A stretch of 64,000 bases of DNA, from NCBI GenBank assembly GCA_964633115.1, contig CAZWEO010000001.1, positions 78,162-142,161 on the forward strand, in the 5' to 3' direction. Under the pieces are notes generated by a model. That model saw only the letters and a list, made by a program, of their open reading frames with translations, had not been told where the DNA came from and searched no databases. How positions within the stretch are numbered: position 1 is the first letter of the stretch; each line of letters begins with the position of its first letter. Below are positions 5,583 through 64,000 of this stretch, one piece after another. Made by a program: the position numbers and the translations under genes. Source of the stretch: an uncultured Desulfobacterales bacterium (lineage in GTDB: Bacteria; Desulfobacterota; Desulfobacteria; Desulfobacterales; B30-G6).

Positions 5583-6048
5583 AGTAACCTCCTTTTTTAG
5601 ATACCGCAATTCAGGAACAAAAAATGAGTCACGTTTTTATGACGTGAATAGGATTAAACCTATTAGGAAAATAAATTTCCCATATGGTTTAAAAACAGCT
5701 GCTCTGTAATAAGGATTAGAAAGTAAGCGTCTGCTAATTATAGCTGTGCGCGTTAAGAAATGGCCCGAAGATTGAAAAATCCCGAGTACATATTGACATC
5801 ATTTACTATACCCAGAGATGATTTTTTGTCAAATAAAAAAAGTAGATAGGTTTTTAATGCCGGTTCTGGCCGTTGACGTTTCAATATATCGACTCTTTCC
5901 CCAATCCGCTAATATTTTTCACCCTAAATTCACAACAGAAAGTAATAACCGGCTAGGTCCTAAAGTAGACAATCTGCTTGATTAATAGCAAATGTGTGCT
6001 ATGTGAATATAACTCGAAGAACGGCTTCTCTCAACTGGAGACATCAAC

Positions 6049-6441
6049 GTGCAATCCTATCGAACCGGAAGGCTTTTTTTTGAATCCATCCCCATTGATT
6101 CCGATCTGATTGCCTATATTAAAGCCCTTTGTCTGAACCAATCGATCCAAATTGCCAGGTTTAAGGTTATAGGGATTGTAGCTTCGGCCACGATTGGTGT
6201 ATATGATCTAAAGCAGCAAGTTTATGTAACCCATATCGAGAAGAAAGCCACCGAAGTGATATCCTGTATGGGCCATGTAAACTGGAATGAAGAAAAACCC
6301 CAGGTTGCCGCTAAAATAATTCTTGCTGACCAGCAAGGACAGGTGACCGGTGGGCATCTTTTCTCCCCCACGTTGGTCCAAGAATCTGAAATCGATCTAC
6401 AGGAACTGATAGATGTAAACTCTGAAATTGTCGTGTCATAA
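6049..6441 (+). CDS. PPC/DUF296 (PCC)-domain protein
   Basis: 130-aa ORF with GTG start and GGAGA RBS. The overall pattern resembles PPC-domain proteins. Weak family call. Confidence 0.55.
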   Translation: MQSYRTGRLFFESIPIDSDLIAYIKALCLNQSIQIARFKVIGIVASATIGVYDLKQQVYVTHIEKKATEVISCMGHVNWNEEKPQVAAKIILADQQGQVTGGHLFSPTLVQESEIDLQELIDVNSEIVVS

Positions 6442-7608: not shown

Positions 7609-8982
7609 ATGACCAAGGCATTAAGTGCATTTGTGTTAAAAATGGAACGTGATGAGCTGCCGCCAACGGTAATTGATACCTTTTCGCATTATTACCGACA
7701 ACTGGCCGCCGGCGAATCCGGTCTGATTTCCGATACGGACATCCAACCGCTCACCCCGGATGACATTTTGGATGCAGCAAGCCTGGAAGCCTATACTGCT
7801 GCGGGGCAGGCAGCCATGTCAAAAGCCGTGGCGATTGTATTAAACGGCGGCTTGGGCACCAGCATGGGGCTTACCAAAGCAAAGTCCCTGATTCCGGTTA
7901 AAGCCGAACAAACCTTTCTGGATATCAAACTGAAGCAGGCTGAACACCGGGGCTCGCAGCTGGCGTTTATGAACAGTTTCAATACCCATTCCGATACAGT
8001 GGCGGCTGTATCGGCAGCTGCAACCAAACTGCAGCCGGCATTCTTTATTCAAAATAAGTTCCCCAAGGTGCTAACAAAAAATCTCGATCCGGTCGACTGG
8101 CCGGAGGATCCCAATCTGGAATGGAATCCACCCGGTCACGGCGATGTCTATGCTGCCCTATATGCATCTGGATTACTAAATCGCTTGCTTAAGAAGGGTA
8201 TAAAATACGCCTTTATCGCCAATTCCGATAACTTGGGCGCCTCCTTGGACAAAAGGCTTTTGGGTTATTTTGCGGATCATAACTTTCCATTTATGATGGA
8301 AGTGGCCCAAAGAACGCCCGCAGATCTGAAAGGCGGCCACCTGGCGCGGCACAAAAATGGAAACCTCGTATTGCGGGAAATCGCCCAGTGTCCCGAAGAT
8401 GAAATCGCCGCCTTTCAGGACATCGAGCGCTATCGATATTTCAACACCAATAGTCTGTGGGTCAATCTCACCTATCTGCAAGCCCTTTTTGAGGAAAAGG
8501 GGGCCCTATATCTACCCATGATCGTCAACCCCAAAACCGTGAATCCCAGATTGGCAGACAGCCCGGCTGTTTTCCAGATCGAATCTGCCATGGGTGCCGC
8601 CATTGCATTGTTTCCGGGGGCCAGCGCGGTTCAGGTGGGTGTTGACCGATTTATGCCGGTAAAAAAATGCCCCGAGCTTTTAGCTATCCGATCCGATTGT
8701 TACCATTTAACGGATAATTATGAGCTTATCCTGAATCCTGAACGTCAAATGCCGGCACCGCATATCACCCTCGATGTTCAATATTATGGTCATTTGGATG
8801 CATTTAATCAAAGATTTCAATGGATACCGAGTTTGGCGAATTGCCAATCTTTGACCATCCACGGAAACATATTTTTTGAAAAAGATGTTATCATCTCCGG
8901 TAATGTGACCATACGACATGATGGAGACGACCCCGCCATCATATCCGCAGGAAGCCGAATCGAATCGGATCTCAATATTTAA
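7609..8982 (+). CDS. UTP--hexose-1-phosphate uridylyltransferase, UDPGP (eukaryote-like) family
   Basis: The ORF begins at TTG 7603, and an in-frame ATG at 7609 is preferred. Motifs LNGGLGTSMG, NSDNLGA and the NPPGHGD region are typical of the UDPGP family rather than GalU. Confidence 0.75.
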   Translation: MTKALSAFVLKMERDELPPTVIDTFSHYYRQLAAGESGLISDTDIQPLTPDDILDAASLEAYTAAGQAAMSKAVAIVLNGGLGTSMGLTKAKSLIPVKAEQTFLDIKLKQAEHRGSQLAFMNSFNTHSDTVAAVSAAATKLQPAFFIQNKFPKVLTKNLDPVDWPEDPNLEWNPPGHGDVYAALYASGLLNRLLKKGIKYAFIANSDNLGASLDKRLLGYFADHNFPFMMEVAQRTPADLKGGHLARHKNGNLVLREIAQCPEDEIAAFQDIERYRYFNTNSLWVNLTYLQALFEEKGALYLPMIVNPKTVNPRLADSPAVFQIESAMGAAIALFPGASAVQVGVDRFMPVKKCPELLAIRSDCYHLTDNYELILNPERQMPAPHITLDVQYYGHLDAFNQRFQWIPSLANCQSLTIHGNIFFEKDVIISGNVTIRHDGDDPAIISAGSRIESDLNI

Positions 8983-9199
8983 CCTCCATAAATTATATGG
9001 ACATCTGATCCGAAAATGGATATGTTATTTAACATAACACGCCAATTGTAACGAAGCACAACTCGATCGAAAGCGAATCCACAGCACCTCTTGCTATTGA
9101 TGAACTCTTCTTTGTACGGCTCAATTCCGCTCTCCCTGTCCTGATAGTTTTTCTCTCATTTCAAAATGCATTTTGCATCCAAAAAAGAGGTGGCCTATC

Positions 9200-10111
9200 A
9201 TGAAAATCAACTTTAACAACATCTTGTGTGCTACCGACTTATCCGATCTATCCGGGGTAGCCATTTCTTCGGGAGTGGCTTTGGCCAGGGAATTCAATGC
9301 CAATCTATATCTCTGCCATATTGTAGACCTCAGCACGACCGCCGCTTATGGTGACATCATTTTCGCACCCCTAGAACTTCAAAATAAGTCCATAAGCTAT
9401 ACCCATGAACAACTCGAGCAAATCATGCAAGATCAGCAGCTCGAGTGGATACCCCTGGTCACGGCTGGTCATCCGCCAGACGAAATTTCAAAATTTGTGG
9501 CTGGGCACCAGATAGACCTCGTGGTTGCCGCAACCCACGGCCGCAGTGGTCTCAAACGGGTTTTTTTAGGATCGGTTACCGAACGCTTGATGAGAACGCT
9601 CGCTTGTCCTTTATTAATCGTCCGGAGTACGGAAGGCACTGATATTTTAAAGGGTAAAACAGCCATGTCATTCAAAAGAATACTGGTGGGATGTGATTTT
9701 TCGAGCTTTTCTAATCTGGCCTTTCAATACGGTCTCAGTCTGGCCCAAGATTTTGAATCAGAATTACATCTAATCCATGTTATCGAAACCCCCATTTACA
9801 AAGATATATTAAAAACCAGTGCAGCCTCCGGTAATTCAACGGAAGGAGCCCTATATGATCGTTTAAATGAAAAACTAGCCCAAAAGATACCAGATGAATC
9901 GGCCATATGGTGTCAGCCCAAAACGAGTCTTTTGGCAGGCAGGCCCTACGAGGAAATTATAAAATATGCGCTATTGAATTCGATTGACCTGATAATTCTG
10001 GGAATTCGGGGGCGCAACCTCATTGAAGCGTTGTTGACAGGATCCACAACCGACCGAATTGTGCGCCAGGGTCCCTGTCCTGTTTTGTCGGTTTGCCCAG
10101 TTACTAAATAA
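9200..10111 (+). CDS. Tandem universal stress protein (2x UspA domain)
   Basis: The ORF track starts at 9173. The ATG at 9200 has an AAGAGG RBS. Two Usp halves each carry an ATP-binding-type motif (THGRSGLKRVFLGSVTERL; GIRGRNLIEALLTGSTTDRIV). Confidence 0.85.
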   Translation: MKINFNNILCATDLSDLSGVAISSGVALAREFNANLYLCHIVDLSTTAAYGDIIFAPLELQNKSISYTHEQLEQIMQDQQLEWIPLVTAGHPPDEISKFVAGHQIDLVVAATHGRSGLKRVFLGSVTERLMRTLACPLLIVRSTEGTDILKGKTAMSFKRILVGCDFSSFSNLAFQYGLSLAQDFESELHLIHVIETPIYKDILKTSAASGNSTEGALYDRLNEKLAQKIPDESAIWCQPKTSLLAGRPYEEIIKYALLNSIDLIILGIRGRNLIEALLTGSTTDRIVRQGPCPVLSVCPVTK

Positions 10112-15342: not shown

Positions 15343-18893
<3,551 letters not shown>

Positions 18894-38552: not shown

Positions 38553-40223
38553 ATGGAGCAAGCTCGTGTATTGATTGCAATCGTGCTTTCATTTGCAGTG
38601 TTTTTTGTGTGGAATTTATTCTTTACGGAGGACTCGCCCCCCAAGGAACCGGCAACTGAACCGGCAATACAGGAGACCAAAAAAGGGACCACAACACCCA
38701 TCGAAACACCGGCGCCGGAAATTAAAACCGCCGAGCCGCCAGTGGTTGTTCAACCCGTCGTGCCCACCGTGACCACGGGTTCGGAGTCACGCGTTCTTCA
38801 GGTGGAATCTCCTTTGTACTCAATTGCCATTAATGAACGCGGTGCAGTCTTTCAAAGCTACGTTCTTAAGCAATATCGTGAAGAAATGGCTGCGGATGCA
38901 CCGTATAAGGAGCTTATAGACTCGTCCGCCAGCCAAGATATGTTGGGTTTGTCATTGGTTGGGAATAGCATTCTTGGGTTAGACCAGGCCGTGTTTGCGG
39001 CCGTGGAGACAGCTGACAAACTAGATGTATTCGAAGACGAAAAGCAGCTTACCTTTCTGTGGGCTTCAGAATCAGGCGTTCAAATCGAAAAAAAATATAC
39101 ATTTCAGCCGGATAGTTATCTGATTCAAATGGCGGTGGCGATCCGCAATGGATCCGGTCAGGCAATTGTCGACAAGCTCGTGCTGGGCATGAAAAATGAC
39201 GCGGCGTCAGAAAAAGCCGGATATTCATTCAGTGGCCCCAGTGCAATGATTGACAATAAACTGGAGCAAGTTAAAGAAAAGAAAATAAAGGATCAAAGCG
39301 AATATCCTGGTAATATCAAGTGGTTAGCCATTGTGGATCGCTACTTTATGAAAGGGATAATGCCCAAAGAAGAAACCCAGGGCGCCATGAAACTTTCCTT
39401 GGACGACAAGGGTGTGTTGGGTTGTCGCTTTATCGGTCCCGACCGGACTATCCAGCCAGGCACACAAGCTACATACGAATATGAAATCTTTTTCGGGCCA
39501 AAAAGCATGGCGGTCTTGAAGGAAGCTGGCCATGATCTTAACAGGGCGCTTGATTTCGGAATGTTTGATTTTATCGCCAAGCCACTCCTGTGGTTCATGA
39601 ACTTTATCTACAGCCTGATTCCCAACTATGGCATTGCCATTATTATGTTGACCATATTGACCAAAATTGTCTTATGGCCACTGGGATCCAAGAGCTATAA
39701 GTCCATGAGCGAAATGAAGCGCTTGCAGCCATTAATGGGCGAGATCCGTGAAAAATACAAAAACGACAAAAAGCAGATGAATCAGGAGATTATGTCCCTG
39801 TACCGAACCTACAAGATCAATCCCATGGGCGGGTGCCTTCCCATGGTTATGCAGATTCCGGTCTTTTTTGCTTTGTATCGCATGCTATACCAGGCCATCG
39901 AGCTTCGGCATGCGCCTTTCTTTTTATGGATAAACGATTTGTCGGCTCCGGACCGCTTATTTAATTTTGGTTTCTCGATACCTTTTATGCAGCCGCCTTA
40001 TGGGTTCCCCGTGTTGACGGTCATTATGGGTGCAACCATGCTGCTGCAGCAAAAAATGTCACCCCCCCCCGGAGACCCGACCCAGGCGAAAATGATGATG
40101 CTCATGCCAATCGTTTTCACCTTTATTTTTATCAATTTTTCGTCGGGGCTTGTACTCTACTGGCTAATCAACAATGTTCTATCCATTGGTCAGCAATTTT
40201 ACATTCAGAAAAAGTATGCATAA
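38553..40223 (+). CDS. yidC: Membrane protein insertase YidC
   Basis: 556 aa with an N-terminal anchor, a large periplasmic domain, and the conserved C-terminal 5-TM core (GCLPMVMQIPVFFALY, SGLVLYW). Confidence 0.95.
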   Translation: MEQARVLIAIVLSFAVFFVWNLFFTEDSPPKEPATEPAIQETKKGTTTPIETPAPEIKTAEPPVVVQPVVPTVTTGSESRVLQVESPLYSIAINERGAVFQSYVLKQYREEMAADAPYKELIDSSASQDMLGLSLVGNSILGLDQAVFAAVETADKLDVFEDEKQLTFLWASESGVQIEKKYTFQPDSYLIQMAVAIRNGSGQAIVDKLVLGMKNDAASEKAGYSFSGPSAMIDNKLEQVKEKKIKDQSEYPGNIKWLAIVDRYFMKGIMPKEETQGAMKLSLDDKGVLGCRFIGPDRTIQPGTQATYEYEIFFGPKSMAVLKEAGHDLNRALDFGMFDFIAKPLLWFMNFIYSLIPNYGIAIIMLTILTKIVLWPLGSKSYKSMSEMKRLQPLMGEIREKYKNDKKQMNQEIMSLYRTYKINPMGGCLPMVMQIPVFFALYRMLYQAIELRHAPFFLWINDLSAPDRLFNFGFSIPFMQPPYGFPVLTVIMGATMLLQQKMSPPPGDPTQAKMMMLMPIVFTFIFINFSSGLVLYWLINNVLSIGQQFYIQKKYA

Positions 40224-40238
40224 CAATGGAGGCAGACC

Positions 40239-41015
40239 ATGTCCCCTGTATTGGAATTCGAAGACAAAAGCGTGGAGAAGGCCATTCAGAAGGCCAGCCA
40301 GAAGCTGGATATTCCAGCCAACAAACTTGAACATGACGTCATTTCGCATGGCTCCAGCGGCATTTTTGGCCTGGTTGGATCAAAAAAGGCCAAGATTCGG
40401 GTTGTCGTACCGGAGGAACATTCGGATAGTCCCAGAATCCCAGAGACCAACGACATATCGGAAACAGAGGATCAAGGCGTGGATTCCATTGTAGACGAGG
40501 CTTTTGGAAAGGTGTCCACTACCAATATATCTGATACGGATCTTAATCTGGGGAAAGACGTTTTGCAAAAGATGGTCGATCTGATCACAACAGATGCGAC
40601 AATTAGCATGCAAACGGCAAACGGTAAGATTCTATACGAAGTCAAAGGCGGCAATGCTGCGGTTCTGATCGGTAAACGGGGCCAAACTCTCGAAGCCATG
40701 CAATATTTGGTGGAAAAGATTATCAATAAACAGAACCAAAAACGTATTCGCGTTGAAGTGGATGTGGAAGGATATTTGCAGAATCGACGCGAGCGGCTGG
40801 AAAGTTTGGCTTTACGTTTTAGCGCCAAAGTGAAAAAAACCGGCCGACCACTAACCGCGGGTCAATTCAATGCCCATGATCGCCGTATCATCCATATCAC
40901 CTTGAAAGAGGACCGCGACGTACGAACCCACAGCGTAGGCGAAGGATATTATCGCAAGCTTAAAATTTATCCAAAAAAGAAACGACGGAAAAAATCCAAC
41001 CCAAATAGCACCTAG
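40239..41015 (+). CDS. jag: Jag/KhpB RNA-binding protein (Jag_N + KH + R3H)
   Basis: 258 aa. LIGKRGQTLEAMQYL (KH) and the HDRRIIHITL region (R3H). Conserved position after yidC. Confidence 0.85.
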   Translation: MSPVLEFEDKSVEKAIQKASQKLDIPANKLEHDVISHGSSGIFGLVGSKKAKIRVVVPEEHSDSPRIPETNDISETEDQGVDSIVDEAFGKVSTTNISDTDLNLGKDVLQKMVDLITTDATISMQTANGKILYEVKGGNAAVLIGKRGQTLEAMQYLVEKIINKQNQKRIRVEVDVEGYLQNRRERLESLALRFSAKVKKTGRPLTAGQFNAHDRRIIHITLKEDRDVRTHSVGEGYYRKLKIYPKKKRRKKSNPNST

Positions 41016-41022
41016 CGCATCC

Positions 41023-42426
41023 ATGACTAAAACAACCATAGCGGCCATCTCCACGCCTTATGGCTCCGGCGGCATCGGTATTATTCGCGTATCAGGGGAT
41101 CAATCTATTCAAATTCTGGAAGCGTTATTTGAAAAAAGCGGTTGCAGAGATGGTGACACCGTCCCTGTAATCGATCGTCTGGAATCACACCGCTTTTACC
41201 ATGGATATATTCGGGACTCACAAACAGGGCAACGCGTTGATGAAGTTCTGGTGGTGGCCATGCTGGGACCGCGATCCTATACGCGTGAGGATGTTGTTGA
41301 AATCCATTCTCATTCCGGTCCGGTTGTGTTGGGCAAAATCTTTGAACAGGTGATTAATCGAGGGGCCGCCATTGCCGAACCGGGTGAATTTACCAAGCGG
41401 GCCTTTCTCAACGGTCGTATCGATTTAACCCAGGCCGAAGCGGTAATCGATATTATCCAAGCCAAATCCGAGACAGCCCTACAGATAGCCAATCATCAAT
41501 TAGCAGGCGGGTTAACCCAAAAAATAGATCCAATTAGAGAGGCTCTGCAATCGATTCGGGTGTTAGTTGAAGCAGCCATTGATTTTCCTGAAGACATCGA
41601 AGAAAGTGTAAAAACCCAATCGATTCAGGACGAGCTGGAACTTGATGTCATCGCCAAGATTGATCAGATTTTGGGCGACTATAAGGCGGATCATTATTTC
41701 CGGGATGGCGTTAAAATGGCCGTTATTGGGCGGCCGAATGTAGGCAAGTCCAGCTTAATGAATCGCTTGATTGATCGCGATCGGGCGATTGTAACCGCCA
41801 TACCGGGAACCACGCGCGATGTTATTGAAGAAGTCATTCATATTAAGGGGCTTCCCATTGTGATCATGGATACCGCTGGATTGCATACCGCCAGCGGTGA
41901 GGTTGAAAAGATCGGTATGCAAAAGACACAGCAATCTATTCAGGATGCGGATATCGTCCTTTTTATGATTGATGCCAGTATGGATATTTCGTCAGAAGAT
42001 AATGAGATATATGTGCAAATTGAAAATAAAAAACATTTAATCGTTTACAATAAGATCGATTTGATCCTGGCTGATCAAGAGCAGATCATTTCAACCATGT
42101 GGAAGGATCATGCCGTTGTACGTATTTCGGCACTTAATGGAACCAATCTGGACCAGCTCAAAAGGAAACTATGGTCCCTGGTGGTAGGCAAAACAGGACT
42201 CGACCGAGAAATTGGGGTCGTACCCAACATGCGGCACAAAAAGCAACTGGAAACCTGTTTGGCCGCTGCTAAAAGAGCCAGACGCGCGATTAAAGAAGAG
42301 TTGCCAGCAGAATTGATTGCAACCGACATCATGGACGCCATCAAAACTTTGGGGGCTATTCTTGGCGAACAGTATCCATCGGATTTGCTGGATCAGATTT
42401 TCAGTCGATTCTGCATTGGGAAATAA
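41023..42426 (+). CDS. mnmE: tRNA modification GTPase MnmE
   Basis: 467 aa. TIAAISTP N-terminus, G domain [12 protein letters not shown] / DTAG, C-terminal FCIGK. Confidence 0.95.
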
Positions 42427-53619: not shown

Positions 53620-54990
53620 TCACTTTGCGTTATAACTGGCAAGCTTACGCCTGAGCGTGTTAAGTCCAATACCTAAAATGCGGGCGGCTTGGGATTTGTT
53701 ATGATTTAGCTGATGATATACTTGCATGATGTGGGTTTTTTCAACCTCTGCCAGGGGAGCCAAAGGAGCTGCACCATCAGGAAGTTTTACCTTCTTGGCG
53801 GGCTTTGGGTTACCTAACGACCTGGGTAGGAACCGAGGGGCAATGGGCAAACCCTGGGCAAGGTTTACCGCGGACTCAACCATGGCCTTGAGCTCCCGAA
53901 TATTACCGGGGAAATCATAATTCATTAAAAGTTGCAGTGCTTCAGGTGTAATGAAATTTCCTTTTTCAAGATCGTAATGAGTGGCTAAAAAGGCTCTAAC
54001 CAAAAGGGGGATATCGATCTTGCGATCCCTTAAGGGCGGTAGATGCAGCCAGCCACCCCGGATACGGTAGTAGAGATCCTTCCGAAAACGGCCACGTCGC
54101 ATCCGTTTTTCTAAATCGGTGTTGGTGGCGGCCACAAAACGGACATCCGCAATTTGATCGGTGCTGGTACCCAGTTTGATATAACGGCCGTCCTGAATAA
54201 ATCGAAGCAGTTTTCCTTGCACCTCCATGGGCAACAACCCGATTTCATCCAGAAAAAGGGTGCCCTGGTCGGTATATTCCAAATAGCCCGCTCGGTTGCT
54301 CTCTGCACCGGTATAGGCCCCCTTGGCATGTCCAAAAAACTCAGCATCGAACAGATTACTATTGAGGGACGCCATGTTGATGGCCGTAAACGGATGCTTT
54401 TTTCTAGGGCTGGCCTGATGGATGGCGCGTGCCAATAGCTCTTTTCCGGTGCCACTTTCACCGGTAATGAGTATGGGAACATTGCTGGCAGCATGCAATT
54501 CGGCTTCTTTGAGAACCCGCAGCACACGATTGGATGTGGTGTTGAAGGCTTTAAAGGCGGCCTTGTTTTTTAATCGCGGGGCGGTCTGTTGCTTGGCAAT
54601 ATCTCGAATGTCCAGTAGCCGTTTGTGTTCCAAAGCGCGATGAACCGATAAGGCTAAATCCTGCCTAGAAACCGGCTTGAGCAGATAATCATAAGCACCG
54701 AGTTGTAAACAGGTCACTGCTGTGCGGGCTTCATTGACCGCTGTAATGATGATGCATTCAGTTAATGGGCTATGGTTTTTAATGATATCGAGCAATTCCA
54801 AACCGGTCATGCCCGGCATGGTCATGTCCAGCAAGGCCAGATCAAACTGTTTGCCTGACTCAATTCGTTCGGCCGCCTTTAAGGGATCATCTTCCAGAGT
54901 GATTCGCCGGAACTTATTTTTGCGTAAATGCTGTTTTTGGATATCCAGAAAATCACGGTCATCATCCACAATCAAAATTCGAGGCTCCAT
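53620..54990 (-). CDS. Sigma-54-dependent response regulator (receiver + AAA+ + Fis-type HTH; NtrC/AtoC family)
   Basis: The ORF track extends to 55146. The ATG at 54990 has an AGGAGA RBS and gives MEPRILIVDDD. Walker A GESGTGKE, GAYTGA (a GAFTGA variant), C-terminal HTH SQAARILGIGLNTLRRKL. Confidence 0.9.
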   Translation of the reverse strand: MEPRILIVDDDRDFLDIQKQHLRKNKFRRITLEDDPLKAAERIESGKQFDLALLDMTMPGMTGLELLDIIKNHSPLTECIIITAVNEARTAVTCLQLGAYDYLLKPVSRQDLALSVHRALEHKRLLDIRDIAKQQTAPRLKNKAAFKAFNTTSNRVLRVLKEAELHAASNVPILITGESGTGKELLARAIHQASPRKKHPFTAINMASLNSNLFDAEFFGHAKGAYTGAESNRAGYLEYTDQGTLFLDEIGLLPMEVQGKLLRFIQDGRYIKLGTSTDQIADVRFVAATNTDLEKRMRRGRFRKDLYYRIRGGWLHLPPLRDRKIDIPLLVRAFLATHYDLEKGNFITPEALQLLMNYDFPGNIRELKAMVESAVNLAQGLPIAPRFLPRSLGNPKPAKKVKLPDGAAPLAPLAEVEKTHIMQVYHQLNHNKSQAARILGIGLNTLRRKLASYNAK

Positions 54991-55116
54991 CGTCGGTCTC
55001 CTGAAGGGACATGCGATTGTCCGAGCCCGAACCTTTTTTTCCACGAAACGGAACGTTATCCTGACAATCATTAAGAATCTTCGGCAAGCAGCTTCACTAG
55101 CATTCATTTCGGCGTT

Positions 55117-55205
55117 GTGCCAAATTGGCCTATGCCAATTTGGCACATATCATCTTGCTTGCTGAAAACACAACCAAAAACCTGCTCCATATGCCAAAAT
55201 GGCAT
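55117..55205. promoter_or_regulatory. Three TGCCA-N3-TGGCA palindromes (candidate enhancer/UAS sites)
   Basis: gTGCCAAATTGGCc at 55117..55130, TGCCAATTTGGCA at 55133..55145, aTGCCAAAATGGCAt at 55191..55205. They lie in the divergent intergenic region, roughly 110-200 bp upstream of the -24/-12 promoter. Confidence 0.5.
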
Positions 55206-55444: not shown

Positions 55445-56314
55445 ATGGGTCTGAAACAGAAACTAGATGCAGGGGAATTCGTTATACTGGCAGAAATGGA
55501 ACCCCCCAAAGGAGCCGATGCGTCGGCCATGCTTGCCAATGCGAAAAAGGTTAAAGGAAGTGTGGACGCCTTTGTTGTTCCCGAGATGAGTAACGCCGTC
55601 ATGCGTATGAGTTCCCTCGGTGGTGGTATGATTTTGCAGGCCAGCGGTATGGATGTGGTTTTTCAGGTTAACTGTCGGGATCGCAACCGCATTGCCATAC
55701 AAGCAGATCTCTTGGCCGCAAATGGTTGCGGGATTTTTAATATCATGGCTGTTAAAGGAGAGGATCCCAGCTTTGGCGACCATCATCAGGCACGTGCTGT
55801 GTACGACATCGATTTAGCAGAGTTGTTGGCGGCGATCCAAGGGCTCCAACAAGGGCGGGATATGGCCGGGATCGAACTTAAAGGTGCACCGTCATTTTTA
55901 GTGGGAACAACCGTGGATGCCGGTGCCCGGGATAAATCTCCGGAACTGATTCGGGAAGAGATGGATCAGAAAAAGGATGCCGGCGCGCAGTTTTTCATTA
56001 CACCCCCTTTGTTTGATATGGCCACCATCGAACCGTTTATCAAAGGTGTTGATCCCACCGAAACCAGAATCATACCCACAGTCCTGCTACTGAAATCTTT
56101 GGGCATGGCTCGCTACATTTCGCGTAATGTCAGCAATACATTCATCCCGGATGCATTAATTCAGCAGCTCCAGAAAGCGCCGGACAAGGTTAATGCGTGT
56201 ATCAAAATCGCTTCGGAAATGGTCAAAACATTAAAAAAGGAAGGTTTTTGCGGTGTGCAGCTTTCCACAATCGGATGGGAGGATAAGCTCCCGGCAATAT
56301 TGAAAGGGGTTTGA
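55445..56314 (+). CDS. Methylenetetrahydrofolate reductase-like protein (MetF paralogue 1, no adjacent MetV)
   Basis: 289 aa. MTHFR-fold blocks (FQVNCRDRNRIAIQADLLAA, FFITPPLFD). GGGAGG RBS. Confidence 0.75.
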   Translation: MGLKQKLDAGEFVILAEMEPPKGADASAMLANAKKVKGSVDAFVVPEMSNAVMRMSSLGGGMILQASGMDVVFQVNCRDRNRIAIQADLLAANGCGIFNIMAVKGEDPSFGDHHQARAVYDIDLAELLAAIQGLQQGRDMAGIELKGAPSFLVGTTVDAGARDKSPELIREEMDQKKDAGAQFFITPPLFDMATIEPFIKGVDPTETRIIPTVLLLKSLGMARYISRNVSNTFIPDALIQQLQKAPDKVNACIKIASEMVKTLKKEGFCGVQLSTIGWEDKLPAILKGV

Positions 56315-56324
56315 GGAATAAAAA

Positions 56325-59300
56325 ATGACAAAGCAATCAGGTGAGCACAAATCGGATTTGGTCGGTTCAGTCATGGTCGTCGGCGGCGGCATCACAGGCA
56401 TGCAGTCGGCCCTGGATCTTGCCAATTCAGGCTATTATGTTTATATGCTCGAGTCCTCTTCTGCCATTGGTGGACTCATGTCTCAGTTGGACAAGACATT
56501 TCCCACCAACGACTGTGCCATGTGAATTATTTCACCCAAACTGGTCGAGGTCGGCCGGCATCTCAACATCGAGCTTCTTACGAACACCGAATTGATTTCC
56601 TTAAACGGCGAACCAGGTAATTTTAGCGCCAACATTCGTCAGAAACCTCGCTTTATTGATTTAGATAAATGTACCAGTTGCGGGGAATGTGAAAAGGTCT
56701 GCCCCGTATCCCTGCCCAGTGAATACAATGAAGGCCTTGCAGACAAAAAAGCGGCATTCAAGCAATATCCCCAGGCAATTCCGGGGGCGTTTGCAATCGA
56801 TAAAAAAGGTTCGGCGCCCTGTAAGGTAAGTTGCCCGGCCCACGTGAGTGTTCAGGGTTTCATAGCCTTGATCCAGCAGGGGAAATACGAAGAAGCTCTA
56901 AAACTTTTCAAACAGGATCACCCCCTTCCGGGCGTCTGTGGACGGGTGTGCCATCATCCTTGTGAAGGTGCCTGCACACGCAATCAGGTAGATGATACTT
57001 TGTCGATCCAGTATCTGCACCGATTTCTGGCAGACAAGGATCTTGAAAGCGGCAAACCGTTTTTGCCCGAAAAGAAAGCCGAACGATCTGAAAAGATTGC
57101 TATCATCGGCGCCGGACCGGCCGGATTAACCTGCGCCTATTATCTGGCCATTGAGGGATATCAGGTAACCGTTTTTGAGAAGCTTCCGGTCCTGGGCGGC
57201 ATGCTGACAGTCGGGATTCCTTCCTATCGCCTGCCGCGGGATATTATTGAAAGTGAAATTCAGACCATCAAGGATTTGGGCGTCAAGTTTAAAACCGGCG
57301 TAGAGTTGGGCAAGGATATTACGGTGGCCCAACTGCGGGAAGAGGGTTTTAAGGCCTTTTTCATGGGCATTGGCTCGCATGAATGCAAGGTTTTGGGTAT
57401 CGAAGGAGAGGATTTGGAAGGGGTGTACCCGGGCATCGATTTTCTGCGAGAAGTCAACCTGGGCAATCGTGTTCAACTGGGTGAACGTGTGGCCGTGGTC
57501 GGAGGCGGCAACGTCGCCATGGATTCGGTCCGTACGGCCCTACGAACAGGCTCTAAAAAACCATTTGTAATTTACCGCCGCAGCTATGAAGAAATGCCGG
57601 CCAACGATGTGGAAATCGAAGAGTGTGGCGAAGAAGGCGTCGATATCATGACTCTGACCAACCCAATACGTGTGATCGGTGAAAACGGGAAGGTTCAGGC
57701 CATTGAATGTATCAAAATGGAGCTGGGGGAGCCGGATGCCAGTGGTAGACGGCGGCCCGTCCCCATTGAGGGCTCCGAATTTACCATGGAGGTGGATGCA
57801 GTCATTCCGGCAATCGGTCAGGAGAGCGACTGGGCCTGTCTGACAGACGAATGCGCCTGCACCTTGAGCGACTGGGGCACCATGCATGTGGACCCGGTAA
57901 CCCTCCAGTCAAGCGATCCAGATATTTTCTCGGGTGGCGATGCTGTGACCGGTCCGGCGACAGTTGTGGAGGCCGTGGAAGCCGGTAAGCAAGCCGCCAT
58001 CTCCATCGACCGTTTTGTGGAAGGTCAAGATTTGGCTGAGGGACGTGAAAAGCAATGGGTGACGGTGGATGACATTCCCTTGGATGATGCCGTTAATCAA
58101 CCCAAAGAAAAGATGCCGACCCTGGACGCCCAGGAGCGAATTTCAAATTTTAACGAAGTCCAGCTGGGTTTTGACGAGGGCATCTCCCAAAAAGAATCCG
58201 ATCGCTGTCTATCCTGCGGCATTTGCTCGGAATGTTACCAATGTGTGGAGGCCTGTCTGGCTGGTGCTGTGGAACATGAACAGGTGGTTGAAGAAAGACA
58301 GATTCCAGTGGGGTCGGTGGTACTGTCCACGGGCGCACGGCCCTATGATCCTGGCCATTTAGAACGGTATTATCACTATGGCACCAATCCCAATGTGATG
58401 ACGAGTCTGGAATTCGAGCGTATGCTGAGTGCATCCGGACCCACCATGGGACACCTTATTAAGCCATCGGATGAAACCGAACCCAAGCGGATCGCTTGGT
58501 TGCAGTGCATCGGTTCCCGCGATAACAACCAATGTGGCAATGGATACTGTTCTTCGGTTTGCTGTATGTATGCAATCAAGGATGCCATGGTGGCCAAGGA
58601 ACATTCTAAGGCAGACCTGGATTGTACTATTTTTAATATGGACATCCGAACCTTTGGGAAGGATTTTGAAAAGTACTATGTCCGGGCCAAAGACCAGGAA
58701 GGCGTGAATTTCGTCAAAGCACGCGTGCACACTATTGACGAAGTAGGCAAGGATAAGGATTTACGCATCCGCTACGCCGATGAGGCTGGTGAGCTGCAGG
58801 AAGAAATTTTCGACATGGTCGTGCTATCTGTGGGTTTGCAAGTATCGGAGCAGACCATCGATCTGGCTAAACGCCTAGACGTTGAGATGGATCCATATAA
58901 TTTTGCTGTAACCCAACCGTTTTCCCCAGTAGAGACCTCACGTCCGGGGATTTATGTCAGCGGATCTTTTCAGGAAGCCAAAGATATTCCCAGCTCGGTC
59001 TCGGAGGCCTCGGCTGCGGCTTGTGCCGCCGGCGCACGCCTGGCCGCAGTCCGCAATACCTTGACCCGAACGGTGGAACTGCCCCAAGAGCTCGATGTGA
59101 GTGAGGAAGAACCCCGTATCGGCGTCTTTGTTTGTAATTGCGGTATTAACATCGCCGGGGTTGTGGATGTGGCCGCTGTGGAGGAATATGCTAAGACCCT
59201 GCCCTATGTCACCTATGTTACCCAGAACCTGTTTACCTGCTCCCAGGATTCCCAGGACCAGATGAAGGATATTATCAAGGAACAGAATCTTAACCGGATT

Positions 59301-60779
59301 GTGGTGGCTGCCTGTACCCCCAAGACGCATGAAGCCATCTTTATGGATACGATCCGCGAATGCGGCCTCAACAAGTACCTATTTGAAATGGCCAATATCC
59401 GTAACCAAGGCTCTTGGGTCCATGCCAAAGAGGCTGATGAGGCAACTGAAAAATCAAAGGATTTGGTCCGCATGGCCGTGGCCAGATCAGCCACACTCAA
59501 TCCCTTGGGCGAAAAAACCATACCTGTCAATCAAAAGGCCCTGGTGGTGGGTGGTGGTATTGCCGGCATGAATGCGGCCCTGGGTCTTGCTGACCAGGGA
59601 TATGAGGTCTTTTTAGTGGAGAAGGAGAATCAACTGGGCGGTATGGCCAACAACCTAAAGGCCACCATTGAAGGTGCCCAAATTCAGCCCTATCTGACAG
59701 AGCTCCGGGAGCGAATCGGTTCGAATGAAAAGATTCAGGTGCTGACCCAATCGCTCATCGTAGGCTTCTCTGGCTTCAAAGGCAATTTCACAACCGAAGT
59801 ATTAGTGGGGCCTGGCATGTACGAGCGTAAGATCGAACACGGCGTCGTCATCCTGGCCACCGGCGCCAATGAATACCAGCCCAAAGAGTATTTGTACGGT
59901 GAAGACAAACGCGTGATGACCCAGGTGGAGCTGACCCAACATATGGAGAACCTGAAGTCGGGCTCATTGAATCAGGTGGTCATGATCCAATGCGTAGGCT
60001 CACGCAATGAAGAAAATCCAAATTGCTCGCGGATATGCTGCCAGAATGCAATCAAGAATGCTCTCCATATCCGCGAAGAACACCCGGATGCCAATATTTA
60101 TGTGTTGTATCGCGATATCCGGACCTACGGATTGTTGGAGGAGTACTATAAAGAAGCTCGAAAACAAGGCATTTTGTTCTTCCGCTATACACCGGATAAT
60201 CCACCCCAGGTGGAATCTTCAAAAGATGGGGTGAATGTCACCTTTCATGATCATGTGCTCAATCGACCCTTGCAGGTCAGCGCCGATGTACTGGCCCTGA
60301 GTGCCGGCATGGTGCCAGAGGATACGGCCGAGCTTGCTTCAATTGTAAAGCTGGCCAGAACCCCCGAGGGCTTTTTCATGGAAGCCCATGTCAAACTGCG
60401 ACCCGTGGATATGGCCACCGAGGGTATTTTTGTATGTGGCACTGCTCACAGCCCCAAACTGATTTCTGAAACCATATCTCAAGCCAATGCGGCGGCATCG
60501 CGGGCCATCACTTTCCTATCCCAATCGGAACTGACCCTGTCTGCCATTACGGCCGAGGTCAAACAGGACATGTGTGCCTCCTGCCTTGTTTGTGTGCGTT
60601 CCTGTCCCTATGATGTTCCCAAGATCAATGCCGATGGCGTCAGCGAAATTGATGAGGCCCTATGCCATGGATGCGGTGTATGTGCGGCCGAATGCCCGGC
60701 CAAGGCGATTGAGCTTAACTGGTATGAAGACGATCAATTGATTTGCAAGATTGAATCCTTGCTGGAGGGAGTCCTATGA
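56325..60779 (+). CDS. Giant HdrA-like flavoprotein (HdrL-type: HdrA module with inserted GltD/NfnB-like NAD(P)H module + second complete HdrA module), selenocysteine at UGA 56523..56525
   Basis: ORF-track pieces 56325..56525 and 56592..60779 share one frame, and the only stop between them is that TGA. Context [29 protein letters not shown] matches the HdrA Cys/Sec site. GltD-like [16 protein letters not shown]...[14 protein letters not shown]. Second module [29 protein letters not shown]-terminal 2x[4Fe-4S] CxxCxxCxxxCP. Confidence 0.85.
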
Positions 60780-61207
60780 GTCAAACATTTGAGCCGATTA
60801 TTATCGCCTTTTGTTGTAATTTCTGAGGGTATACGGCCGCGGACCTGGCAGGTTCCATGCGACTGACGTATCCGACCAATATTAAAATTATCCGGGTACC
60901 CTGCACCGGTAAGGTGGATATCCTGCATATCCTCAAATCCTTTGAAAAAGGAGCCGACGGTGTTTATGCGGTGGGGTGTATGGAAGGCGATTGCCACTAC
61001 ACCGGTGGTAATTTTAGAGCCCGTAAACGGGTCGAACAGGCCAAAAAGATTTTGGATACGGTAGGTGTGGGCGGAGAACGGGTGGAAATGTTCAATATGG
61101 CCTCCAGCGAAGGCCCCATGTTTGCAGAGGTGGCTGTGGATATGGTGAAAAGGATCAAGGCGCTGGGGCCCAATCCCATCAAGCTACCCAAGAAGGATGC
61201 AGCCTAA
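60776..61207 (+). CDS. mvhD: MvhD-like [2Fe-2S] protein, selenocysteine at UGA 60824..60826
   Basis: The ATG at 60776 overlaps the upstream stop (ATGA), and GGAGGGAG is the RBS. Translation [32 protein letters not shown]... continues in frame into ORF-track 60857..61207. The motif corresponds to the FxCNWC-xY-xxADLAG block of MvhD/VhuD. Confidence 0.85.
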
Positions 61208-61313: not shown

Positions 61314-61982
61314 ATGATTGTTGCTGACAAGAAGCCAATTGAAGAGATTATTGAGGACATCAAGGATCACCAAAAGATACTGGTTCTGGGTTGCAATGAG
61401 TGTGTCACGGTGTGTGAGGCCGGCGGAAAAAAGGAGGTTGGCATCCTGGCATCGGCACTACGCATGTATTTCCTAAATCAGGGCAAGGAAAAGAAGATCG
61501 ATGAACGCACGCTCGAGCGCCAATGCGATCATGAATATCTAGAGGAGATCCGCAATGATATCGATCAGTACGATGCCGTTGTGTCGATTGCTTGTGGCGT
61601 CGGTGTCCAGTTTACAGCCGAAAAGTATCTGGCCATGCCCGTTTATCCCGGTGTCAATACCTGCTTTATGGGTGCCACCGAGGAACGTGGTCTCTGGACC
61701 GAACGATGTCAGGGGTGTGGGCAATGTATCTTATCCCGTACGGGTGGGATCTGCCCGGTTTCACGGTGTGCCAAACGGGTCATGAATGGGCCCTGCGGTG
61801 GATCCACCAAGGGAATGTGCGAAATCAACAAAGAGTTGCTGTGTGCTTGGCAACTGATTGTCGAACGTCTCAAAGCCCTGGATAGATTTGCTGAGTATGA
61901 GGAGCTGAGTCCGATTAAAGATTGGTCCACCGACCGGGCAGGAGGACCCCGAAAAGTTGTGAGGGAGGATGTGCAGTCATGA
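61314..61982 (+). CDS. metV: MetV (MTHFR-associated Cys-rich Fe-S/zinc-ribbon subunit)
   Basis: 222 aa and Cys-rich (LGCNECVTVCEAGG; CQGCGQC; CPVSRCAKRVMNGPCGG). ATGA overlap with the downstream metF. Confidence 0.8.
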   Translation: MIVADKKPIEEIIEDIKDHQKILVLGCNECVTVCEAGGKKEVGILASALRMYFLNQGKEKKIDERTLERQCDHEYLEEIRNDIDQYDAVVSIACGVGVQFTAEKYLAMPVYPGVNTCFMGATEERGLWTERCQGCGQCILSRTGGICPVSRCAKRVMNGPCGGSTKGMCEINKELLCAWQLIVERLKALDRFAEYEELSPIKDWSTDRAGGPRKVVREDVQS

Positions 61983-62908
61983 AAACAAATACGCCGAGTC
62001 GCTTGGAAAAGGTATTAGCTGCCGGTCAGATGGCCGTAACCTCAGAGTGTGGTCCGCCAAGAGGTAGTGATCCGGATGCCATTACCAAGAAAGCAGAGCT
62101 GATCAAGGACCATGTAGATGCCATCAATATCACCGATAATCAGACGTCAGTTACACGTATGTGCAGCCTGGCGGCCTGTATCCGCATCAAATTGATGGGA
62201 CTGGATCCGGTGTTACAGATGGTAACGCGCGATCGGAATCGGATTGCCTTGCAGAGTGATATTTTAGGCGCCGCATCCTATGATATCGCCAATATTCTGT
62301 GTCTCTCCGGCGATCATCAAAGTTTTGGTGACTGCGCCCAGGGCCAAAATGTGCATGATCTCGATTCCATGCAACTGGTTCAGACCGCTCGCCATATGCG
62401 CGATGAAGGTAAATTCTTGGGGGGTGACGATATCAAGCGGCCGCCTCAGATGTTTGTGGGTGCCGCAGCCAACCCTTTTGCCGATCCATTTGAGATACGC
62501 GTGCCAAGATTGGCCAAAAAAATCAAGGCCGGGGCCGAATTTATCCAAACTCAATGTATCTATAACCTGGATAAATTTGAAGAATGGATGAAGCTAACCC
62601 GGGATCGGGGTTTGCATGAACAGGTCTATATCCTAGCCGGCATGACACCTATGAAGTCGGCCGGTATGGCCAAATATATGAAGAATCGCGTACCCGGCAT
62701 GGATGTGCCCGATGAGTTGGTTAAACGCTTGTCGGATACGCCCAAGGAAAAGCAGGCCGAAGAGGGTATCAAGATATGTATTGAAGACATTCAACGATTG
62801 AAAGAAGTGGAAGGCGTGAGTGGTTTTCATGTCATGGCCATCGAGTGGGAAGAAATGGTACCTGAAATCGTGGAAGCGGCGGGTTTGTATCCTCGGCCCA
62901 CCGTGTGA
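61979..62908 (+). CDS. metF: Methylenetetrahydrofolate reductase (MetF paralogue 2, MetV-coupled)
   Basis: The ORF track starts at 61922. The ATG at 61979 overlaps the metV stop. 309 aa with blocks QMVTRDRNRIALQSDILGA and EFIQTQCIYN. Confidence 0.85.
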   Translation: MKTNTPSRLEKVLAAGQMAVTSECGPPRGSDPDAITKKAELIKDHVDAINITDNQTSVTRMCSLAACIRIKLMGLDPVLQMVTRDRNRIALQSDILGAASYDIANILCLSGDHQSFGDCAQGQNVHDLDSMQLVQTARHMRDEGKFLGGDDIKRPPQMFVGAAANPFADPFEIRVPRLAKKIKAGAEFIQTQCIYNLDKFEEWMKLTRDRGLHEQVYILAGMTPMKSAGMAKYMKNRVPGMDVPDELVKRLSDTPKEKQAEEGIKICIEDIQRLKEVEGVSGFHVMAIEWEEMVPEIVEAAGLYPRPTV

Positions 62909-62959: not shown

Positions 62960-63349
62960 ATGACGGACAAAAAAAGAATTCTCGTAGTAGATGACGAGCC
63001 TGACTTCTGCTCCATCGTTCAGGGGCAGCTTGAAAAAGAAGGATTTGAAGTTGACTTGGCTTATAATGGGGTGGAGGGCATGGAGAAAGTTCAGGCCAAC
63101 CCCCCCGATGCGATTGTGCTCGATGTGATGATGCCCGAAAAAGACGGCTATGAAATGTGTAAGGAACTCAAATCAGATAGCAATTTATGTGAAATTCCAG
63201 TGCTTCTTTTGACCGCCGTGGCATCGCACGTAACATCGACCCGATATTCTCACGCCGATGGTATGAGCACCGAGGCTGATGATTATATCGCCAAACCCGC
63301 TTCGGCCGAGGAAATTTCACAAAGCATCCGTTTGATGCTGGGCATGTAG
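62960..63349 (+). CDS. Stand-alone response-regulator receiver (CheY-like)
   Basis: 129 aa. ILVVDDEPD, phospho-acceptor context VLDVMMPEKDG, and a Lys in the YIAKP block. Confidence 0.85.
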   Translation: MTDKKRILVVDDEPDFCSIVQGQLEKEGFEVDLAYNGVEGMEKVQANPPDAIVLDVMMPEKDGYEMCKELKSDSNLCEIPVLLLTAVASHVTSTRYSHADGMSTEADDYIAKPASAEEISQSIRLMLGM

Positions 63350-63424: not shown

Positions 63425-64000
63425 ATGTCATTGCCGGTTTTAAAGCTAGATAAGAAAAAAAGTGTGTTCAAAGAAGAGGTCATGAAAATCTTGCCCGAGG
63501 GGGGTAATCTAAATCTTTGTCTGACATGTGGGCTGTGCTCTTCGGGATGCCCGGCAACCGGGTTAGAGGACATGGACCCCCGAAAATTTTTAAGAATGGC
63601 TTCACTGGGGCTGGATGAGGAGGTGCTGAGTTCAAAGTGGGCCTGGATGTGTACCATGTGTCAACGCTGTATCATCGCCTGCCCCATGAAGATCGATATC
63701 CCGGCTCTGGTTTTCAATGTCCGTAATCGTTGGCCGGTAGAAGATCGACCCAAAGGTATTCATAGCTCATGTGAAATGGCCTTTAAAAATGATACCTGCA
63801 GCGCCATGGGTGCCACGGTAGAGGATTTTCGATTTGTCGTCGAGGATGTGCTGGAGGAGTATCAGGAGGAACAGCCTGAATTTAAGGATATGCAGGCGCC
63901 CATCGACAAACATGGGTCCGAGTTTTTCTTGAACCAGAACTCGCGCGAACCAGTGACGGAACCGGATGAAATGGTACCGTTATGGAAAATTTTGCACACG
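63425..64000 (+). CDS. HdrC/HdrD-like iron-sulfur protein (5' part; runs off the window)
   Basis: Not in the ORF track because there is no stop within the window. The ATG at 63425 is open for 192 codons. Two ferredoxin motifs, CLTCGLCSSGCP and CTMCQRCIIACP. The antisense ORF 63361..63657 is judged spurious. Confidence 0.75.
   Translation, partial: MSLPVLKLDKKKSVFKEEVMKILPEGGNLNLCLTCGLCSSGCPATGLEDMDPRKFLRMASLGLDEEVLSSKWAWMCTMCQRCIIACPMKIDIPALVFNVRNRWPVEDRPKGIHSSCEMAFKNDTCSAMGATVEDFRFVVEDVLEEYQEEQPEFKDMQAPIDKHGSEFFLNQNSREPVTEPDEMVPLWKILHT

Follow-up and report, generated by a model that had tools for sequence, protein, structure and literature searches.

The gene at positions 60776-61207 of the stretch analysed here, 64,000 nucleotides (nt) from an uncultured Desulfobacterales bacterium (contig CAZWEO010000001.1, positions 78,162 to 142,161; hereafter the window), very probably encodes a full-length MvhD electron-transfer protein with selenocysteine (Sec) at an in-frame UGA codon. 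The gene, mvhD, begins at an ATG (60776-60778) that overlaps the stop codon (60777-60779) of an hdrA-like gene in the sequence ATGA, and its reading frame, once past the TGA at 60824-60826, runs into an open reading frame (ORF) of 116 residues listed at 60857-61207. A first-pass annotation, made from the sequence alone, had placed the ribosome-binding site, the ATGA overlap, the TGA, the 116-residue ORF and a hairpin at 60841-60856, and all of these coordinates were confirmed on the sequence; its translation of the N-terminus was reproduced as well. The elements of the gene, among them a candidate selenocysteine insertion sequence (SECIS), are as follows.

60776-61207, + strand: full-length mvhD coding sequence, 143 codons including Sec17, with stop codon TAA at 61205-61207
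60764-60771, + strand: Shine-Dalgarno-like sequence GGAGGGAG, read directly from the sequence, 4 nt 5' of the ATG at 60776
60824-60826, + strand: Sec-UGA, residue 17, motif CCNF-U, from orthologue codons and the VhuD alignment
60839-60855, + strand: invariant 17-nt block GCGGACCUGGCAGGUUC containing the SECIS hairpin, from nucleotide alignment A2
60827-60873, + strand: possible extended lower SECIS stem, from the minimum free energy (MFE) structure of the window sequence, weakly supported

The Pfam model PF02662 (FlpD/MvhD, curated cut-off 22.3 bits) was searched with the UGA read as Cys in the 143-residue product. The full-length sequence scores 162.8 bits and covers profile positions 1-123 of 123; the truncated ORF scores 128.3 bits over positions 21-123 only, losing positions 1-20 and 34 bits. 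This end-to-end match bears out the earlier observation that the ORF list holds a truncated mvhD only and, together with VhuD and MvhD chains as the best matches among solved structures, the assignment of the gene as an MvhD homologue. Those chains match the full-length protein with E values from 3.7e-43 to 7.8e-35, the best being 9sfi_K (VhuD in the Methanococcus Hdr-Vhu-Fwd assembly, E = 3.7e-43), followed by 9sw2_D, 7bkb_F and 5odc_D. The residue aligned with the window UGA is an X in 9sfi_K (AFVCYQ-X-GYGAADLAG), read here as the first Sec of VhuD, and in chains of the Cys type, such as 5odc_D, it is the last Cys of CCNWC. Since the UGA pairs either with Cys, in Cys-type homologues and 5odc_D, or with the X of VhuD, the proposal that Sec takes the place of the final CCxxC cysteine agrees with the alignment. 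The second X of VhuD aligns with Cys68 of the window protein, which therefore has one Sec and not two. The conserved set C14, C/U17, C43, C68 and C73 is complete: C43, C68 and C73 are invariant in protein alignment A1, and C14 and position 17 (Cys or TGA) are kept in orthologous loci and PDB chains. A CCxxC/U block is present in every solved MvhD or VhuD matched. By homology to these solved chains, the window MvhD is predicted to bind a [2Fe-2S] cluster.

A genomic scan, with one genome per species, returned 80 orthologous mvhD loci. The codon at the UGA position is TGA in 63 of these and TGC or TGT in the remaining 17. Loci with TGA carry Desulfobacterales-, Desulfobulbales-, Syntrophobacterales- or Desulfarculales-type labels, with Desulfobacterium sp. 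N47 and strain NaphS2 among them; those with TGC or TGT are mostly from metagenome-assembled genomes labelled Dehalococcoidia, Myxococcales, Thermoplasmata or Actinomycetota, plus a few that are deltaproteobacterial. A protein search gives a matching picture, in that every one of the closest relatives, at 81-91% identity, is cut at the same Met and has a length of 115-116 residues, and more distant relatives are full length, with CCHYC-AYTAADLAGS and thus Cys at the UGA position. The N-terminal block FEPxIxAFCCxx lies in frame 5' of the TGA position in 80 of 80 loci, so no orthologue that starts at the internal Met and lacks the upstream block was found among them, and the UGA together with its context is conserved in 63 of the 80. 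Codons -10 to -3, +2, +4 and +12 onwards vary synonymously with the amino acid kept. Tyr +2, for example, is encoded by TAC in 34 and TAT in 30 sequences, and Ala +4, conserved in 64 of 64 Sec-type sequences, uses four codons. Because amino acids are kept here while codons vary synonymously, the region between the UGA and Met28 is translated. Three loci carry tandem mvhD duplicates, L041 (3178, 3644), L044 (2691, 3458) and L055 (1667, 2131), with the TGA and the hairpin core in both copies.

The hairpin, GGACCU-GGC-AGGUUC at 60841-60855, has a stem in which 60841-60846 pairs with 60850-60855 and an apical loop GGC at 60847-60849; the stretch occupying 60841-60856 is GGACCUGGCAGGUUCC. The spacing between the UGA and the hairpin, first counted as fifteen nt, is actually 14, which puts the start of the hairpin at +15 and the apical loop 20 nt past the UGA. 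Over columns 16-32 of alignment A2, 61 distinct sequences are identical, save for one loop change in L059. At that locus (6043-6099) the loop reads GUC in place of GGC, a GCA to TCA change that turns Ala into Ser and remains compatible with the G[G|U] loop rule of the bacterial SECIS model. The plain 6-bp helix, with its G.U pair and GGC loop, is paired in 61 of 61 sequences. What survives of the first-pass description is a hairpin 3' of the UGA with a GG loop that fits the bacterial model; its bulged U does not, as that register needs C60856, present in only about half of the orthologues (TCC in 34 and TCG in 30 of 64). The published bacterial SECIS (bSECIS) model (PMC13188914) allows an apical loop of 3-9 nt with G in its first two positions, a stem of 4-16 bp, a UGA-to-loop spacing of 16-37 nt and an MFE of -7.5 kcal/mol or lower. 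The window hairpin, with a 3-nt loop (GGC, a GG start), a 6-bp upper stem, a spacing of 20 nt and an MFE of -16.2 to -17.4 kcal/mol, falls within all of these constraints.

Synonymous sites carry the comparative case. Codons +5 to +9 (GCG GAC CTG GCA GGT) show zero third-position entropy in 64 distinct Sec-type sequences, compared with 1.0-1.57 bits for the same codons in 14 Cys-type homologues and 1.7-2.0 bits for flanking four-fold codons in the Sec-type sequences themselves. Of 54 conserved degenerate mvhD codons, none but these five contiguous hairpin codons reach zero entropy, the minimum elsewhere being 0.62 bits. The window has a single copy of the 15-nt core GGACCTGGCAGGTTC; 790 kb of loci have 65, a number that agrees with that of the mvhD Sec-UGA sites, and the core is found only after these. 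The out-of-sample TGA loci L065 and L067 carry it too. The mvhD hairpin is under RNA-level constraint only in UGA-bearing loci.

On the reading that these findings make very probable, mvhD encodes a complete 143-residue [2Fe-2S] electron-transfer subunit of the MvhD/VhuD type, with the UGA at codon 17 decoded as Sec. The small mRNA hairpin inside the mvhD coding sequence would direct this recoding; if it acts like its counterparts in E. coli and Moorella, it would bring SelB.GTP.Sec-tRNA(Sec) to the ribosome for the incorporation of selenium. Translation of mvhD is coupled to that of the upstream large HdrA, itself Sec-containing, and the likely setting is an Hdr-type (Moorella-like) methylene-tetrahydrofolate reductase (MTHFR) module of this Desulfobacterales bacterium. 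Because mvhD is coupled to Sec-HdrA and followed by metV-metF, its product most likely serves as an adaptor through which single electrons move between the HdrA flavin and a partner module. The [2Fe-2S] cluster of MvhD/VhuD is described as handing single electrons to the HdrA flavin (PMC6019823, PMC13518236), and a 2026 preprint (10.64898/2026.04.10.717634) states that methanogenic MvhD has a Cys close to the cluster that engages in a redox-active disulfide. Sec17 is likely to be a redox-active selenol beside the cluster, with a selenenylsulfide replacing the disulfide. A comparable case is BamF of the Geobacter metallireducens class II benzoyl-CoA reductase, like the window protein an MvhD-homologous [2Fe-2S] adaptor with an N-terminal Sec, Sec19, that has been proposed to form a selenenylsulfide; BamF adjoins a fused double HdrA, BamE (same preprint). 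By motif position, Sec17 and Sec19 are probably the same residue. BamF differs in being more than 100 residues longer, with extra domains, and in serving the reduction of aromatic rings rather than C1 metabolism.

Several results weigh against this interpretation or parts of it. The folding energy of the mvhD hairpin is no better than that of shuffled sequence (z = -0.10 to -0.82), and since energy did not discriminate from shuffles, the support for a SECIS in mvhD is comparative and not thermodynamic. The core hairpin, invariant in 61 of 61 sequences, offers no compensatory changes by pair counts or RNAalifold, and because an invariant stem allows no covariation, the evidence was taken from synonymous sites. 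The proposed check of the element by folding and covariation was therefore uninformative for the core hairpin (z near that of shuffles, no covariation in the stem), and it is the UGA-specific synonymous constraint that speaks for it. The extended lower stem, with an MFE of -16.2 kcal/mol in the window, pairs in only 78.8% of cells across orthologues; three of its pairs show double changes, and its covariation score is marginally above shuffles (4/500). Related sequences can exceed shuffled covariation scores without any structure. Rfam gave no relevant match for the whole window at the gathering threshold or for 60760-60920 at E <= 10. In the 64-kb window, a tRNA scan and family scans, including 38 further ORFs, found no tRNA-Sec, selA, selB or selD. 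Genes of the sel set need not be linked to selenoprotein genes, and cultured relatives with a Sec-mvhD do have them: Desulfobacterium autotrophicum HRM2 carries selABCD (PMC2702500) and Desulfococcus multivorans carries selA/B/D (PMC5109826). The role given to Sec17 derives from the statement of a preprint (10.64898/2026.04.10.717634) about Sec19 of BamF and methanogenic MvhD. Last, hdrB and hdrC are not adjacent to hdrA in the window, and to that extent the complex departs from its Moorella counterpart.

Were the UGA a real stop, translation would produce a 16-residue leader and re-initiate at AUG 60857, using AGG as its Shine-Dalgarno sequence, to give the 116-residue protein. The AUG does lie directly after the conserved block, with AGGU 3 nt upstream, gene callers pick it on all public contigs, and a re-initiation signal would likewise be specific to TGA-bearing loci. 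Yet the ten codons from UGA to AUG are homologous to MvhD residues 18-27, with amino acids kept through synonymous change, and a product begun at the AUG would lose Pfam positions 1-20, 34 bits and the CCxxC/U block of all solved MvhD and VhuD; nor would a Shine-Dalgarno sequence need 17 invariant nt. With the codons between UGA and Met28 translated in frame, termination followed by re-initiation at Met28 was rejected as very improbable. That an in-frame stop seen in a single sequence might mark a pseudogene, or a sequencing or assembly error, is a reasonable concern for any one genome, but here the same TGA occurs in 63 independent genomes, the exact truncated product is found on at least 24 metagenome contigs, and the protein is under purifying selection on both flanks of the UGA. 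These comparative data refute the idea, which we consider to have next to no chance of being right.

A somewhat less remote alternative, though still an improbable one, has the UGA read as a standard amino acid (Cys, Trp or Gly), by near-cognate suppression or under a reassigned code. In its favour, no Sec machinery was seen in the 64-kb window, and five entries in ENA (P0001, P0004-P0007) read CCNF-W-GYTAADLAG, with Trp at the Sec position. TGA, however, ends 9 of the 39 family-supported genes of the window, including hdrA, metV and metF, so code 4 or 25 is ruled out and the code is standard; a reassigned code was rejected on this ground, and the Trp calls are artefacts of a TGA=Trp translation table. 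In the alignments the UGA position is matched by Cys or Sec, and in no case by Trp or Gly. Selection on a hairpin that fits the SECIS model is confined to UGA-bearing sequences, and cultured relatives with the same gene have selABD (PMC2702500, PMC5109826). The reading that remains preferred is Sec at codon 17. Public gene calls contain the same truncated 116-residue product, along with a truncated HdrA of 1395 residues, on at least 24 metagenome contigs, and such truncated or Trp-bearing database versions of this mvhD (L081-L084 and the five ENA entries) are a systematic annotation artefact.

The genes around mvhD, and the recoding elements of hdrA, are listed here.

53620-55146, - strand: sigma-54-dependent response-regulator/activator, divergent, upstream of the operon
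55445-56314, + strand: second MTHFR-like gene, directly upstream of hdrA (PF02219, 4.7e-28)
56325-60779, + strand: hdrA-type gene, HdrA/GltD-like fusion ("HdrL"/Moorella type), about 1484 codons, from Pfam domains and translation
56523-56525, + strand: hdrA Sec-UGA, from the TGA/Cys comparison over loci
56538-56558, + strand: hdrA SECIS, with invariant codons +5 to +10 (56538-56555) and the hairpin CUGGUCG-AGGU-CGGCCGG at 56541-56558
61314-61982, + strand: metV, zinc-finger/Fe-S partner of MetF (PF12225, 9.9e-36)
61979-62908, + strand: metF, methylene-tetrahydrofolate reductase, its start overlapping the metV stop (PF02219, 3.3e-35)
62960-63349, + strand: response regulator, stand-alone receiver domain, between metF and the Fer4/CCG gene
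63425 onwards: Fer4/CCG gene, running off the window end

The adjacent hdrA-type gene shows the same Sec-versus-Cys signature, in keeping with the earlier suggestion that its UGA also encodes Sec. The hdrA ORF that had been listed, from TTG 56592, is a truncation; the true start is ATG 56325. Its UGA codon is TGA in 33 distinct sequences and Cys in 23, and codons +5 to +10 have a third-position entropy of 0 in the 33 Sec-type sequences, as against 1.0-1.7 bits in the 23 of Cys type. The hdrA hairpin folds at -9.5 kcal/mol, with z = -2.4. An mvhD with TGA occurs together with an hdrA encoding Cys in sixteen loci (L025, L029, L031, L032, L035, L038, L039, L046, L050, L052, L057, L059, L064, L066, L068 and L069) and the reverse combination in none. 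Because such mixed loci exist, recoding in mvhD and recoding in hdrA are separable, and Sec is kept more widely in MvhD than in HdrA.

A third gene of the cluster, identified by Fer4_8/Fer4_17, starts at 63425 and runs off the end of the window at 64000. In locus L001, 97% identical, the corresponding gene (8684-9991) has a Fer4 frame that crosses a TGA at 9410-9412 (KVWLNTE-U-GHEFF) into a CCG domain, and this TGA is followed by a hairpin, CAGUCC-GGGUC-GGACUG, with 22 nt to the loop. The equivalent TGA would fall at about 64151 in window coordinates, beyond base 64000. To judge from the L001 sequence, the Fer4/CCG gene is probably a third selenoprotein gene of the cluster, HdrD/GlpC-like.

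Essentially all of the 80 loci keep the order hdrA-mvhD-metV-metF, and in the window the four genes are contiguous or overlapping on the + strand. The C-terminus of HdrA is encoded directly upstream of mvhD in 80 of 80 loci; metV lies downstream in 76 of 80, and metF is found in 67 of 80, its remaining loci being cut by contig ends. On public contigs metF is called as a protein of 309 residues. Among the loci, the MTHFR-like gene stands upstream of hdrA in the closest relatives only: L001-L008 and L074 have it at 73-92% identity, and L023, L024 and L026 at about 52%. The activator gene upstream and the receiver-domain gene downstream suggest two-component, sigma-54 control of the cluster. Elsewhere in the window, dnaN-gyrB (15343-18893) and yidC-jag-mnmE (38553-42426) are both present, about 20 kb apart. 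These gene groups are usually found near the replication origin. Upstream of dnaN is a large UvrD/PcrA-type helicase gene on the other strand, and not dnaA.

MvhD/VhuD (PF02662, motif CxxU) is a listed, experimentally verified selenoprotein family, as the first-pass annotation had noted for VhuD, and in Deltaproteobacteria genes for hdrA, frhD/mvhD and GlpC-like selenoproteins cluster (PMC13188914). The closest described counterparts belong to the same order-level group as the window. The 2009 genome of D. autotrophicum HRM2 has four Sec-mvhD genes, each after hdrA or after an HdrA-glutamate-synthase fusion, "hdrL" (PMC2702500), and in D. multivorans a Sec-mvhD was annotated as two split ORFs (PMC5109826). 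Compared by published description, these PF02662 members (mvhD1/2/3/5 and dmul_C28840/50) resemble the window gene in lying directly after a Sec-hdrA or hdrL and in having the SECIS in the coding region; the two papers do not mention adjacency to metVF. VhuD of Methanococcus (9sfi/9t1s) likewise has a residue read as Sec at the homologue of residue 17, followed by GY..AADLAG, and works as a [2Fe-2S] adaptor from which the HdrA flavin receives electrons (PMC13518236). It differs in its second Sec, at window Cys68, in its partner, which is a [NiFeSe] hydrogenase or Fdh instead of MetVF, and in having an archaeal SECIS in the 3' untranslated region where that of the window lies in the coding sequence (PMC13188914).

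Moorella thermoacetica and Sporomusa ovata share the order hdrA-mvhD-metV-metF in their Hdr-type MTHFR (HdrCBA-MvhD-MetVF), and the large HdrA of the window, like that of Moorella, contains a GltD-like NAD(P)H/FAD insert (PMC9430772, PMC5736913). No selenocysteine is reported for these systems in PMC9430772 or PMC5736913, and the word is absent from the Sporomusa paper (PMC9430772). The window further differs from Moorella in having no hdrC/hdrB upstream of hdrA, with the extra MTHFR-like gene there instead, and in having downstream, beyond the response-regulator gene, the fused Fer4+CCG (HdrD/GlpC-like) gene that is interrupted by TGA in L001. As for the RNA element, the mvhD hairpin resembles the E. 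coli fdhF-type SECIS and the bSECISearch consensus in lying just 3' of the UGA within the ORF, in the G-G start of its loop and in keeping within the limits on stem length, spacing and energy. It shares no sequence similarity with fdhF, whose typical bulged U is not conserved in mvhD. Unlike fdhF, the window element is a minimal 15-nt hairpin frozen by protein and RNA constraints together.

Both the selenoprotein and the gene arrangement were already known, and the window mvhD, as one more orthologue, is ordinary for its lineage. The family has been documented as a selenoprotein in Desulfobacteraceae genomes since at least 2009, so its presence here will not surprise a specialist, and because Sec-MvhD after Sec-HdrA is documented in both D. 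autotrophicum and D. multivorans, the result is an annotation fix and not a discovery. The fix matters nonetheless in that standard gene callers split or truncate mvhD and its two neighbours. As a consequence of truncated calls and spurious Trp entries, full-length MvhD is under-represented in databases, and the operon's dependence on selenium goes unseen there. The corrected call restores the conserved CCxxU block beside the predicted [2Fe-2S] cluster, and the core GGACCTGGCAGGTTC provides a simple and specific marker for Sec-type mvhD in Thermodesulfobacteriota.

Least documented is the apparent presence, across Thermodesulfobacteriota, of up to three selenoprotein genes in operons of the Hdr-type MTHFR; the acetogen papers on Hdr-type MTHFR (PMC9430772, PMC5736913) do not discuss a selenoprotein link. 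In the sixteen loci that pair a Sec-type MvhD with a Cys-type HdrA, the HdrA may have reverted to Cys, or remained Cys, while the Sec of MvhD was kept. It is conceivable, though we would put it forward only tentatively and as more doubtful than probable, that the Hdr-type MTHFR module of Thermodesulfobacteriota is generally a multi-selenoprotein system (HdrA, MvhD and an HdrD/GlpC-like protein), with Sec in MvhD its most persistent feature and a 15-nt SECIS frozen across orders.

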